Below, piece after piece: positions 4,583 through 64,000 of a DNA stretch of 64,000 bases. Source of the stretch: an uncultured virus (IMG/VR IMGVR_UViG_3300003319_000181) (Duplodnaviria > Heunggongvirae > Uroviricota > Caudoviricetes). Both the position numbers and the translations under genes were made by a program. Each line of letters starts with the position of its first letter. Within the stretch, counting starts at the first letter, position 1. The stretch lies in IMG/VR virus record IMGVR_UViG_3300003319_000181. The stretch is one strand, 5' to 3'. Under the pieces are notes generated by a model. The model saw only the letters and a program-made list of their open reading frames with translations, was not told where the DNA came from and did no database searches.

Positions 4583-5380
4583 TCAACCCCTCGGGCTCGC
4601 CAGCGCCGTGCTCCGAACATTTGCCCAGTCTACGGGGTGCATGGTGGGGGCGAACTTTGCTTCGATCTCTTCAATGGGCTGCCCTTCCCCGAGCAAATCC
4701 GCGACGGTCGCCGCGAAGGATTGGATTTCTTCTGGCGATAGCCGGTTAATTCCCTTTTTGGAGTTTTCTTTAAAAGCTTTATCTTTAATGGGCGACTTTA
4801 TGTCCACCCTAGACCCTGTTTCCATTTTAGACTTAAAGTCCACCCCGGACTTAATGTCCACGGTTGCTTTCGGCAAGAGCATCCGGTAGATAACGCCGCG
4901 CTTCTTCTTATCGGGATTGTCGAAGTCGTAGCCGAGCACTTCAATCAAACCGCGCTGTTGTAGTCGATGCGCCGAGCGTTGCACCTGTTTACTGCTGATA
5001 TTACAGGCATCTCCGAGGGTTGCGTTAGAGACGGTACAGGTGTCCCGGTGAAAGCCCCACGTGAGCCGATAGAGGCGAGAGAGCACCGATTGGTCACTCA
5101 ACTCCAGCGTCCGGTTGAGGTGGTCTGAAATGCCGTTCGGGGTGGCCGTCCACTGGCCGGGAAGGATGGACGCAGTGTCGTGGGTGGACTTTATGTCCGG
5201 GGTGGAACTTATGTCTACCGTGGACTGTGTCGCGGGTAACGGTTCTTTAGTGTCTGCCGTGGACTCCGAGTCTAGGGTGGACTTTATGTCCGGGGTTGTG
5301 CGCGCGGCCTTCTCCTCTTGCTCGCGCTTCAGGTCGGATTGGCTGACGTTCGGCTCCTTCCTAAGCCAGAGTTTGCTCAT
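4583..5380 (-). CDS. Winged-HTH replication-initiator-like protein with internal DNA repeats
   Basis: LYRLTWGFHRDTCTVSNATLGDACNISSKQVQRSAHRLQQRGLI wHTH; flanking VDIKS/PDIKS repeats; ATG at 5380 overlaps the end of the ATPase gene. Confidence 0.7.
   Translation of the reverse strand: MSKLWLRKEPNVSQSDLKREQEEKAARTTPDIKSTLDSESTADTKEPLPATQSTVDISSTPDIKSTHDTASILPGQWTATPNGISDHLNRTLELSDQSVLSRLYRLTWGFHRDTCTVSNATLGDACNISSKQVQRSAHRLQQRGLIEVLGYDFDNPDKKKRGVIYRMLLPKATVDIKSGVDFKSKMETGSRVDIKSPIKDKAFKENSKKGINRLSPEEIQSFAATVADLLGEGQPIEEIEAKFAPTMHPVDWANVRSTALASPRG
4794..5291. repeat. Two clusters of semi-palindromic GGAC-N5-GTCC iteron-like repeats
   Basis: GACTTTATGTCC-like copies at 4794, 4830, 4848, 5186, 5204, 5261 and 5279, often 18 bp apart. 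Confidence 0.75.
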
Positions 5381-6161
5381 GGTCATCTTCCGACAGCAAA
5401 GCCTCCTTAGCGGCGTCCGCGCACAGTTCCGGCGTGATAGCCGCGCCACCGGCGAAGCGGTAGGCCACGGCCGCCACCTTGAGGATGTCGCGCGGCACGC
5501 CCCCCGAAAGCGTGTAGATGGCCTGATAGGCGTCAGGGGTAAACGGGACGGGAACTTCCGCGCGTGCGCACCTGAAGTTGAGCATCTCCTCAGTCTCGGA
5601 GAGCGAGAGGGCGGCCAGATGCGACGGGGCGAAGATGCGCGAGCGAATGGCCTTCTTCGTCGGGTCTTGGAGTTTCTGTCTCAACTCCAACTGTCCCGAG
5701 AGTACGACCTGCACGAGCTTCGTATCATCGGTTTCGAAATTGAGGAGCGTGCGGACGAGTTCCAGTTGGGGCCCCGGGAGACGTTGCGCCTCGTCCACGA
5801 AGACCACGCAGAGCTTATCCTCGCGGTAGAGTTCGATGAGAAAGGCCCTCAAAGCCTCCTCCTGCGCCGTGAAGCTACGCTTGGCGGGCACTCCGAAGTC
5901 GGCGCAGATTTTCTTGAGAAAGGCGAAAGGGGAGGGGAACGAGGGGCTGGCGATCATCGTGGTGGTCGCGTCTTCACGGGAGTCGTACTCATTGAAGAGG
6001 TAGCGCACGACTGTTGATTTACCCAGCCCGACATCCCCGAGGATGGCGGTTAGCCCTTGTCGGCCGTCAACCACGAACCGGACTTTTTCGAGGGTGACTT
6101 CAAGCGCCGGGGTCAGGTAGAGCAGGAGCGGGTTGGGGCTGATACTGAACGGTTGCTTCAT
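5361..6161 (-). CDS. ExeA/GspA-type AAA+ ATPase
   Basis: PFSISPNP start, Walker A GDVGLGKST, Walker B VFVDEAQ, LNFET, VLSGQLEL, SGGVPRDI. Confidence 0.9.
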   Translation of the reverse strand: MKQPFSISPNPLLLYLTPALEVTLEKVRFVVDGRQGLTAILGDVGLGKSTVVRYLFNEYDSREDATTTMIASPSFPSPFAFLKKICADFGVPAKRSFTAQEEALRAFLIELYREDKLCVVFVDEAQRLPGPQLELVRTLLNFETDDTKLVQVVLSGQLELRQKLQDPTKKAIRSRIFAPSHLAALSLSETEEMLNFRCARAEVPVPFTPDAYQAIYTLSGGVPRDILKVAAVAYRFAGGAAITPELCADAAKEALLSEDDHEQTLA

Positions 6162-6342
6162 GGCGGGGGAGGGTAGCACGCTTTAAACTGTTAAGTCTAG
6201 GGGGAGGGGTGAAGAATTAACGCGCGAGCGAAGAGATTGGCGGTATAATGAGCGGCCTAGAAAGGTGAACCGCGCCAAGCGCACGCTTGAGTGTGGGGTA
6301 GAGGAAGGGGAGTAGGGTTGGAGTTCTGTAAGGAGAGGGGAA

Positions 6343-44465: not shown

Positions 44466-45083
44466 ATGAGCAACATCGTCAAAGCGAAAGTCACCATCAA
44501 GGGCGTGCGTCCTTTGCTGCAACACTGTTTCGGGCCGGACGCGCTCCCGCTTGAAAAGCAGGAGAAGGACGGCGTGGCGGGCAACTCTCCTAATGAGTGG
44601 CGCAAGACAGCGCTCGTCACGAAAGACGGCCAGCTTTACCTTGAGCCGTCCTACGCCTTCGCCACGATCCGCGACGCGGCGAAGCACACGAAGAAGGGTA
44701 AGGGCAGCATTCAGAGCGCGGTCGCGGCGACGCTTCAGGTAGTGGACGACAGGATTCTGCTCGACCGCTACATGCCAGGCTTCCCGAACGGGCACGCCTG
44801 CGACGTGAAGACGGTTGAGCCGCCGCCGACCGACCCCGACGCGCCCGTGTACTTGGACGTGCGGAGCGTCAGGAACCCGAGCACGAAGGCGCGCAACGTC
44901 CGGTACAGGGTCGCGGCGTCGCCGGGGTGGTCAACGTCCTTCACTATCCTGTGGGATAAGACCATCGTGGACAGGAACCAGATGCGCGCTGTCCTGAACG
45001 ACGCGGGCACGCTGGTAGGCATCGCGGACGGGCGCAGCATCGGCTTCGGGCGCTTCACCGTCGAGAGCTTTGAAGAGGTTTAA
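44466..45083 (+). CDS. Stand-alone Cas7/RAMP-like RNA-binding protein (Vipr-like)
   Basis: N-terminal beta strand VTIKGVRPLLQH, LYLEP, RYR..W.TSFTI, C-terminal Gly-rich loop AGTLVGIADGRSIGFGRF; AAGGAG RBS. Confidence 0.75.
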   Translation: MSNIVKAKVTIKGVRPLLQHCFGPDALPLEKQEKDGVAGNSPNEWRKTALVTKDGQLYLEPSYAFATIRDAAKHTKKGKGSIQSAVAATLQVVDDRILLDRYMPGFPNGHACDVKTVEPPPTDPDAPVYLDVRSVRNPSTKARNVRYRVAASPGWSTSFTILWDKTIVDRNQMRAVLNDAGTLVGIADGRSIGFGRFTVESFEEV

Positions 45084-45458: not shown

Positions 45459-45535
45459 GGCACGGCCCCGTTCGGCAAGGCGTGGTCAAGAAGGGCGTGG
45501 CATGGCGAGGTCGGGAATGACCGGGTAAGGCAAGG
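45459..45535 (+). ncRNA. GGY-NN pentamer array downstream of the HNH gene
   Basis: 15 phased pentamers: ggcac ggccc cgttc ggcaa ggcgt ggtca agaag ggcgt ggcat ggcga ggtcg ggaat gaccg ggtaa ggcaa, then gg. Confidence 0.8.
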
Positions 45536-45540
45536 TTGAA

Positions 45541-61951: not shown

Positions 61952-62103
61952 AAGTACCTTTCATCCGTAGCCGTGCTCGCCTTTGGAGCGGGCGTGGCGC
62001 TGTTGAGTAAGAGTGGTGGTTAAGGGGGCCATGCGGCTTTGTGTTTGTGTCTGGTCGTGATATACGGTGCGCGTTCTACCATCCCATTCGGAGGTGTCTA
62101 CCC

Positions 62104-62487
62104 GTGTCCTTCGTCGTCGGATTGGTATCGCTCCTTTTCGGTCTCATTGTGTCCACCTATCTGTATGCTTGGCTGCTCCTGCCGCTCATCTACAATTTGC
62201 CAATGAGCATCTACTACTATTACAAGGGCGTTCTGAGATTCGCGGCGATCCCCATGCAACTCATCGCGCCGGTCTTCTGGACGCTCATCTTGTTCGCGCT
62301 CGGTTTCATCCTCGCTTGGCTGGCCCCGCGCGCGTTGGCGTACCTGCTAACAGACCCTTACTTCGTTATAGGCCAACTCATCGGGTTACTGATGATTCTG
62401 AAAACTCCTCTGACAAAAGCCGGTCGCGCCGACCTGTGGCACGACTACGAGCGGCGGACGTTTGCGCGGCTCCAAAAGAATGAATAA
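62104..62487 (+). CDS. Multi-pass membrane protein (moron-like)
   Basis: GGAGG RBS with GTG at 62104; three or four hydrophobic helices. Confidence 0.7.
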   Translation: MSFVVGLVSLLFGLIVSTYLYAWLLLPLIYNLPMSIYYYYKGVLRFAAIPMQLIAPVFWTLILFALGFILAWLAPRALAYLLTDPYFVIGQLIGLLMILKTPLTKAGRADLWHDYERRTFARLQKNE

Positions 62488-62495
62488 GAGGTCGC

Positions 62496-62834
62496 ATGAT
62501 TATGGATATTCAACGAATCGTCGGCGGCCTCATCGTTGCCGCCTTCGCCTTCGGCATCAGCTACAAATGCACCGGCAAAGACGGCGATAAGCTGAAGGCA
62601 TACATCACCTGTGTGTGTGTTACCTATGCCGTGTCCGTCGGATTGGCCGAACTCTTCGGCGCGCCAATCAAGGCCGGGGAGATAATCGAAGCAACTCGGC
62701 AAACAGTCCCCCGTGACGTACCTGGTTGGTCATGGAAGGAAAAGGTTGAGTTTTCACGCTTCATCTTTTGGGTCTCCCTCCTCCCGGCTATGGTCGGCGT
62801 CTACTGCGCGCGAAGGTGGCCTGATGATGATTAA
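62496..62834 (+). CDS. Membrane protein (three TM)
   Basis: GAGGT RBS; hydrophobic segments. Confidence 0.65.
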   Translation: MIMDIQRIVGGLIVAAFAFGISYKCTGKDGDKLKAYITCVCVTYAVSVGLAELFGAPIKAGEIIEATRQTVPRDVPGWSWKEKVEFSRFIFWVSLLPAMVGVYCARRWPDDD

Positions 62835-62880: not shown

Positions 62881-63167
62881 TGCCCGGCTTCTGGTAGTCA
62901 AGCCTGCCACGCCGCGCCGTACCTAGCCGTGCCTGCCGCGCCCTACTCCACCTTGCCGTGCCTTGCCTGCCATTCCGAACCATGCCCTCCACGCCGAACC
63001 CCGCGTAGCCACGCCTGCCCCGCCCAGCCATACCCAACCGTACCGGGACGCGCCCCGCCTCGCCTGCCCTACCAAGTCCCAACTCGCCAAGCCATGCCAT
63101 GCCTCGCCGTGACTGACCGTGCCAAAACACGCCAAGCCCAGCCCTGACGGGCCTTGCCAAGCCTGCC
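62881..63167 (-). ncRNA. Large GGY-NN pentamer array (about 51 pentamers, GGCA-delimited units)
   Basis: Starts right after the stop of 63168..63716; units of 19, 9, 5+3, 6, 5 and 4 pentamers separated by 4-nt GGCA (one GGAG). Confidence 0.85.
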
Positions 63168-63716
63168 TCATGGAGCGATGGCCTGCGTCGCCTTCTCCAC
63201 GTAACTCGCCGCGCGCCGCACACGCTGCCTGTCCGTCTTGCCCGCGAGCCTTTCAAGCGCCTCAAGACTTCGCTTGGCCGAAGAGAGCCGCGAGCGAGAC
63301 TCACGCATCGCGGCGTCGAACTCGTCGGGGCTCTGCGCCAGCACGCGGGTTGACTGGTAGTAACTACCCGACTCTTCTTCCCCCTCCTGCTCCGCCGTCG
63401 CGACACCACGCGGGATGTGCGCGTAGGCGGGCAGCGGCGGCTGCTCCCCTTCGGCCTCGATCACGACCATGCGGATGAACTGCCGCGCCTCCCACAGCCG
63501 GTACATATGGCCCGCCTTCGAGTCGTCCCATGTGAAAGCGCCGTGGATGGGCGAGCGTTTCGACGCGGCGGCCTTGACGACGGCCTCGGTCTGAAGCTGG
63601 CCGCCGTTGCGCTCGCGGATGCGCTCCAACTCTTCGCCCGCGTCCTGCGCCTTGATGCCCCGGTACGTCTCGCCGCCTTTGAACTTGAATTTGTTGAAAG
63701 CCATGTCTTCAGCCAT
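63168..63716 (-). CDS. Accessory protein between the RAMP-like gene and its array
   Basis: AGEELERIR..SPIHGAFTWDDSKAGHMYRLWEARQFIR; GGAGG RBS; overlaps the upstream stop. Confidence 0.75.
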   Translation of the reverse strand: MAEDMAFNKFKFKGGETYRGIKAQDAGEELERIRERNGGQLQTEAVVKAAASKRSPIHGAFTWDDSKAGHMYRLWEARQFIRMVVIEAEGEQPPLPAYAHIPRGVATAEQEGEEESGSYYQSTRVLAQSPDEFDAAMRESRSRLSSAKRSLEALERLAGKTDRQRVRRAASYVEKATQAIAP

Positions 63717-64000
63717 TGCGCCGCACCTCCATAATGGACTCGACCTTGAACCGCCCGAACTGGCCATCCTTCTCCGGCCGCCACTCCCCGACGCCGACCC
63801 CGAACCCCGCGATGTTGAAGAGGTTCAAAATCTGCTCCTCGCTGAGCGCCGACGTGTTGTAGGTGAGGCGGAAGATTGCGCGCCATTCGGAGAACTCGGC
63901 GCGGTAGCGGATGTCGGCCGTGCCCATGCCGACGCGCACCATGTCCTCGCGCATGTGCGGCTCGCCTTTGATGATCGCCAGTTCACCGTCGATGTGAAAC
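63709..64000 (-). CDS. Second Cas7/RAMP-like (Vipr-like) protein, C-terminal part only
   Basis: MREDMVRV..DIRYRAEFSEW..AGFGVGVGEWRPEKDGQFGRF Gly-rich loop, homologous in pattern to 44466..45083. Confidence 0.75.
   Translation of the reverse strand, partial: FHIDGELAIIKGEPHMREDMVRVGMGTADIRYRAEFSEWRAIFRLTYNTSALSEEQILNLFNIAGFGVGVGEWRPEKDGQFGRFKVESIMEVRRNG

Follow-up and report, generated by a model that had tools for sequence, protein, structure and literature searches.

A probable phage-borne VIPR locus with a staggered vrRNA array and a predicted target in the capsid gene of rival phages

The window analysed here, a stretch of 64,000 nucleotides, makes up the greater part of a 70,377-nt contig that has genes for phage head, tail and replication, and very probably carries a phage-borne VIPR system with a staggered vrRNA array. 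VIPR, a CRISPR-related RNA-guided gene silencer, was first described in 2026 (10.64898/2026.04.26.720920). Both the system and the staggered layout are already published, so that the element is of a kind already known. To the thinly covered staggered type, it adds a motif at unit boundaries, a candidate for a natural target and evidence that Y-less repeats stay in register. ORF and repeat parsing of the window gives, in minus-strand order, a 3' fragment of vipr, a 182-aa accessory gene (vap) and a pentamer tract. This corresponds to a minimal vipr-vap locus on a phage, as judged from its visible part, the region upstream of vipr lying outside the window, flanked by a non-coding GGY/NN pentamer tract. 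The three-part vipr/vap/array cassette is common to most of 129 related loci and is kept across many host phyla; an array with the same grammar is present in 77 of the 80 best viral relatives. The locus is real and most likely functional.

The initial annotation described the first gene as RAMP-like and quoted its G-loop peptide. This reading holds: the open frame at 64000-63709 (minus strand) contains that peptide and is homologous to Vipr. The visible part of vipr (63709..64000) comprises the 3' 96 codons, encoding the thumb, the RRM strands and the G-loop; the 5' half lies beyond the window end, and the homology covers these C-terminal 96 aa alone. The fragment matches the Vipr of SUSP1 (PDB 36pp_D) with an E-value of 1.9e-7 using phmmer, and a profile of its relatives does so with an E-value of 4.9e-10. 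It is assigned to phrog_4652, Pfam gives nothing significant for it, and full-length relatives have a median size of 210 aa. A thumb arginine is aligned to R138 of SUSP1 Vipr and a G-loop E-W-R to D177-W178-R179, Glu replacing Asp177. According to the SUSP1 cryo-EM study, the thumb arginine and the G-loop triad bind GGY (10.64898/2026.04.26.720927). Over its C-terminal 96 aa the protein is a RAMP of the Vipr type, thumb and G-loop included. Its Vipr relatives in scans of viral, genome and metagenome sequences do not exceed 73%, which leaves no orthologous arrays for a comparison with that of the window locus.

The annotation was equally right in placing an accessory gene 3' of the RAMP-like gene, followed by the array. 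The vap gene (63168..63716, minus strand, that is 63716-63168 in reading direction) overlaps vipr by 8 nt, and the tract starts at 63167. Its AF2 model (pLDDT 93) has an alpha/beta N-domain and a C-terminal helical hairpin. Vap belongs to phrog_15946 and to a family of 7620 clusters at E<=0.001, is present in 77/80 viral loci and 44/49 genome loci, and is clade-specific, with a conserved H-x-x-F-x-W motif; it is absent from the five relatives of the other RAMP-like locus of the window (locus 1, discussed below). Pfam gives nothing significant for Vap. Fold searches returned only generic helical hairpins for the whole model, with no solved-fold match, a best Z of 2.8 for the N-domain, and unnamed phage proteins only in a viral structure library and the Atlas, a result that is no proof of a new fold. 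Comparison with SUSP1 Vap1 gave an hhalign probability of 0.1 and 3.8 bits, scores that a remote homology could escape, and no nuclease match was found. By likeness to Vap1, as presented in two reports, Vap would probably aid silencing (10.64898/2026.04.26.720920; 10.64898/2026.10.15.759431); that it acts at GGCA is speculation. Considering gene overlap and orientation, vipr, vap and array would probably be co-transcribed. No convincing promoter or terminator was found at the array. Just below it end two convergent membrane-protein-like genes (62041-62834, plus strand) without PHROG family.

The array occupies 62881..63167 on the minus strand, and the re-parse gave again both the 287 nt and the 51 pentamers counted initially. 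From 63167, it reads GGCA-19-GGCA-9-GGCA-5-GGAG-3-GGCA-6-GGCA-5-GGCA-4-GGCA and ends at 62881, with GGCA slips at 63167, 63068, 63019, 62971, 62937 and 62908 and a remnant at 62884. It is the densest 5-periodic GG stretch within the window and contains 29 GGYNNGGY motifs, whereas 2000 dinucleotide-shuffled sequences have 2.9 +/- 1.7 and never more than 10. Entropies at pentamer positions 1 to 5 are 0.5, 0.8, 1.1, 1.8 and 2.0 bits, computed on 56 pentamers of the parse, of which 5 lie past the array end. The phase-breakers had all been taken as GGCA. This is the case at the other breaks, but the break between 5 and 3 is GGAG.

Comparison with relatives' arrays shows how these steps may be read. 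GGCA accounts for 459 of their 644 non-5-nt steps. Other 4-nt steps, corresponding to Y-less repeats, were seen in 96 of 627 units. Among 84 internal GG 4-mers, the base at position three is A in 33 cases, T in 28, G in 21 and C in 2 (GGCA being excluded by definition), a spectrum that resembles N4 and differs from Y3; moreover, in homologous pairs, for example GGGA/GGTGA and GGTC/GGTTC, NN is kept and Y is lacking. Therefore, GGAG is to be read as GG-AG, and the supposed "5+3" units become one guide of nine repeats, unit 3 (62972..63015, minus strand, as are all units), with its Y-less repeat at 62990-62987. Target predictors demanding strict pentamers would split such guides. By the same logic, the units of 6 and 5 repeats (62909..62967) may form a single guide of 12 repeats in which GG-CA is an internal repeat. 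Unit 2 (63020..63064) has nine repeats, and the 19 repeats of unit 1 (63069..63163) can be taken either as a single long guide or as 9+9, repeat 10 then hiding a boundary. The last "unit" of 4 does not stand as such, since 62881..62908 consists of the terminal GGCA, a single clean GGY pentamer out of four and a degenerate tail; in relatives, the two most frequent array endings have one or two pentamers past the final GGCA. The array would hold 4-6 guides. GGCAGG had been proposed as the mark of unit boundaries. This role is supported for GGCA, but GGCAGG alone is not the signal, the 1-nt slip is; in-phase GGCAG was counted 75 times among 2733 pentamers.

The initial annotation saw polar growth or decay in the shrinking unit lengths. 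Relatives lend this no support: over 85 arrays, the mean rho is -0.006, with 42 negative and 40 positive values (p 0.95). Among the 781 distinct units that GGCA delimits in loci L001-L216 (L081 and L132-L136 left out), 600 have 8-12 repeats, 13 have 5-6 and 56 have at least 17. It could still be argued that the window array is decaying, with working guides in units 2 and 3 only and with the 19-, 6- and 5-repeat units as remnants of fusion or truncation. The rarity of such lengths fits this idea, as do the lack of targets for these three units and the fact that none of the 85 relative arrays shrinks as steadily (rho <= -0.9). However, a boundary is hidden in 5 of the 15 clean long units of relatives, Y-less repeats would allow 6+GGCA+5 to be a single 12-mer, and unit 3 matches its site perfectly, apparent defect included, which makes general decay rather doubtful. 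We favor an array whose apparent shrinkage is partly a parsing effect, with possibly some decay at its 3' end.

Another proposed check was that variation among relatives should be concentrated at NN. For orthologous guides, this check has its direction wrong. Orthologous units out of a set of 256 clean ones form 17 families, in which extra alleles at positions 1 to 5 number 5, 20, 21, 6 and 9 per 168 columns; N4/N5 vary less (15/336 columns) than G2/Y3 (41/336). From this allele distribution, NN are diverse between guides and conserved within a lineage. Whole units are also reordered as blocks between relatives. The claim of selection rather than microsatellite drift is supported, given a constraint that is 5-periodic and orthologues separated by 1-nt indels. 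The same two observations make it extremely unlikely that the tract is a drifting microsatellite or encodes an 82-aa Gly/Arg-rich protein (63171-62923). Such an ORF does exist, its ATG overlapping the vap stop, and a like tract is annotated as a CDS in Gordonia phage UmaThurman (gp40), but a sense frame is open in 25 of 95 arrays when 23.5 are expected, the probability of an open frame is 0.34 here, and unit lengths spread over all frames; the array was accordingly rejected as a coding tract. In UmaThurman, the staggered array annotated as hypothetical protein gp40 (L082:2769-3110) lies between vipr (gp39) and vap (gp41), so that a cultured phage with the same cassette is at hand. Several Mycobacterium phages carry adjoining vipr and vap homologues.

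What would such guides recognize? Unit 3, read with AG and with a 1-nt-skip code (18 bases), is found exactly (18/18) in seven contigs of the viral-contig scan. Six are records of one family of 80-90% identical phages, 29-40-kb HK97-type temperate phages, where the site lies on the antisense strand of the major capsid gene (phrog_617) with the skips at wobble positions; five of the nine skip columns vary among the six capsid sites. This match requires that the 4-nt GG-AG repeat be read in register. The best score of unit 3 in the window's own DNA is 13/18. By computation, NN matching with a 1-nt skip on wobble positions is seen for this one window unit and for a unit of the related locus L127 (see below). 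The triplet 5' of the match begins with AG in five of the six capsid sites (L299, L301, L302, L304, L305), as GGCAG would read across the overlap; this is not so for L127, and it is possibly due to chance.

For 18 bases, about 2 contigs are expected by chance, as estimated from the 34 and 30 hits obtained at 16 bases. The six records, being one family that could arise by chance, are not significant by their count, and the weight of the target therefore lies on its context. The seventh contig (L300) is unrelated yet perfect, showing that chance matches do occur. Nevertheless, a fortuitous capsid match, with the true targets elsewhere, appears quite unlikely. Two protein searches point to the same host family: the nearest named homologues of the target capsid are from Pyrinomonadaceae (73-82%), and so is that of the window AAA ATPase (75%), which also falls in Acidobacteriota clusters. 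A homologue of this ATPase (37-38%) is present in 4 of the 6 target records, all four of them longer than 5 kb, and in none of 39 control records, these being chance-hit records (44 of 68 loci taken, 39 usable, many of them fragments). Moreover, a two-gene module is common to the window phage and the target phage G929, the site respects the wobble phase, and the motif occurs in only 5 of 120 capsid homologues. Judging from sequence, unit 3 is thus predicted to aim at the major capsid gene of rival Pyrinomonadaceae phages, which probably infect the same soil bacteria as the window phage. At 4583-6179 of the window (minus strand) lies a pair of genes for a replication initiator and an ExeA-like AAA protein, both having adjacent homologues in G929. 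The window phage, of about 70 kb, probably has Pyrinomonadaceae (Acidobacteriota) as host family. Its capsid relative (68%) is a complete 70.8-kb phage, in which the window-type Vipr profile, which also missed 4 of 5 locus-1-type genes, found no match. Few phages of Acidobacteriota have been cultured, and the prediction describes a candidate phage-phage conflict in this phylum.

Of five scans of viral contigs with units of the window, a single one yielded a credible target. No DNA target of unit 1 was found in the window, in records G001-G005, in viral contigs or in the unit-3 target phages; its seed hits (34 and 30 contigs) do not extend (best 26/38), and there is a weak peptide-level lead to HK97 capsids (11/19, p 0.04) in a capsid-enriched set. 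Neither unit 2 nor the units of 6 and 5 repeats found a target in viral contigs or in the unit-3 target phages, which no other unit matches, and no window unit has a self-target or a target in G001-G005. A neighbouring match of units 2 and 3 in L080, 16 nt apart, was rejected, the two falling in different frames with chance-level scores.

Guides of relatives were also searched. Pooled, 531 units showed no excess over shuffles in 3.4 Mb. When 509 units were compared with the loci that carry them (at least 4 kb each), 10 units matched at p<=0.01 with a 1-nt skip, and 4 and 2 with skips of 0 and 2 nt, shuffled guides giving 3, 3 and 0; wobble-phase excess in self-matches is not significant (9/14 versus 46% in controls). 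The L127 unit matches, at 23/24, a tail-module gene that follows the tape measure in a prophage of G316, a genome without this Vipr, and, at 20/24, its own copy; the match ends at both GGCA. The reversed guide gave 0 in 401 genomes. This guide had been picked for its self-match and was one of three tried on host-related genomes, the two others matching 0/401 and 0/121 genomes. Three units of one array (L105:3813, 4471, 7245) match their own prophage at 18/22, 14/16 and 19/24, as kin-directed guides with diverged self copies. The proposal of a multi-guide precursor with GGCA at unit boundaries is upheld by the prevalence of GGCA among the steps, by separate units matching separate genes and by the L127 match stopping at GGCA.

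By transfer from SUSP1, it can be proposed that Vipr would polymerise on the RNA with one subunit per repeat, GGY being buried and NN presented, and that NN would pair with dsDNA at two bases in three. Each 4-nt GGCA would shift the register by one base and close one guide filament, a boundary role that comes from the comparison of loci. Since vap has no nuclease match, the target gene would be silenced by a transcription block, as shown for SUSP1, and unit 3, on unit-length RNAs, would repress the rival phage capsid gene. A bolder scheme, which we consider fairly unlikely, gives tail-less staggered arrays a code of two symbols, with 4-nt GG-NN as an in-register coding unit (as in unit 3), GGCA as the stop of the filament and Vap as a GGCA processing or capping factor in a Cas6/Cas5 role. 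If true, the locus would stand on the way from single guides to processed arrays as in CRISPR, in a phage that would carry, besides, another VIPR armed with HNH and directed against a homologue of the gene flanking it. It is possible, if on balance improbable, that the array is one uncut RNA with several filaments, where GGCA merely resets the register and processing is absent. Consistent with this, the fold of the terminal region is like that of shuffled sequences (z -0.1 to -0.2), giving no structured tail or ribozyme, Rfam has no match at the array, and sRNA-seq confirmed other array types, not the staggered one (10.64898/2026.04.26.720920). Against it, and at other loci, individual processed vrRNAs are drawn for staggered arrays (fig. 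S18 legend) and other VIPR types yield unit-length RNAs (10.64898/2026.04.26.720920).

In staggered arrays, vrRNAs overlap by 1 nt (Yoon et al., 2026; 10.64898/2026.04.26.720920, fig. S18 legend). GGCA followed by GG is such a 1-nt overlap, and the window array therefore has the published layout, its consecutive vrRNAs being offset by 1 nt in comparison with that legend alone. The published type shares vipr, vap and GGY/NN repeats on a phage, with 9-16 repeats per unit, to which window-type unit lengths are near. For staggered VIPR, the text and legends of that report hold no GGCA motif, 4-nt GG-NN repeats, target or RNA data, the comparison leaving aside its figures and data S1-S4, where GGCA, 4-nt repeats, this vap or its type may appear. 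SUSP1 type II (PDB 36pp) shares with the window locus a homologous Vipr with thumb arginine and G-loop triad, the 1-nt-skip code on wobble positions and rival-element targets (10.64898/2026.04.26.720927). In contrast to type II, the window array has neither spacer nor pseudoknot tail between guides: its units abut directly, and no type II structured 3' tail follows each of them. The window vap also lacks detectable similarity to Vap1, and its Vipr has Glu for Asp177. In class 1 CRISPR-Cas, as in VIPR, an array of several units supplies the guide (there a crRNA) on which the RAMP filament (there Cas7) is built (10.64898/2026.04.26.720920), whereas the window locus has no repeats-and-spacers layout, its specificity is non-contiguous, and there is no cas operon in its seen part. 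In the accessible parts of four VIPR papers (10.64898/2026.04.26.720920; 10.64898/2026.04.26.720927; 10.64898/2026.10.15.759431; 10.64898/2026.10.21.760802), we found neither Y-less in-register repeats nor a natural target of a staggered array; a literature search, with subscription journals mostly outside its coverage, found no further VIPR papers.

The phage carries two VIPR types. The RAMP-like gene of locus 1 (44466-45083, plus strand) is in phrog_4652, as is that of the second locus. As initially stated, the two proteins are only distantly similar (17.6 bits, about a third identical in the alignment) and the partner genes differ, locus 1 having an HNH partner. The repeat grammar is shared as regards GGY-NN, but GGCA staggering is not found in locus 1. 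The downstream guide of locus 1 (45459-45538, plus strand) matches 45664-45617 (minus strand) at 22/28 NN bases over the first 14 of its 16 repeats, in the 3' end of the adjoining gene, with skips on wobble positions. Such a match anywhere in the window was equalled by 1 of 300 shuffled guides (4/300 for the full guide), and G001-G005 contain no better one. This suggests, from sequence matching, that the Vipr+HNH cassette may aim at the flanking gene of kin phages, in a homing-element-like manner. A guide of a locus-1 relative (L217:5628) matches at 19/26 the vipr G-loop codons of two other phages (L218, L219, near 5560), a possible case of VIPR-against-VIPR targeting, which is already reported in another study (10.64898/2026.10.15.759431). 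Finally, the opposite strand has another GGY-NN run at 44272-44213 of the window (minus strand). It lies right upstream of a small HTH gene oriented divergently to locus-1 vipr, and minus-strand runs are present in L218 and L219 as well.
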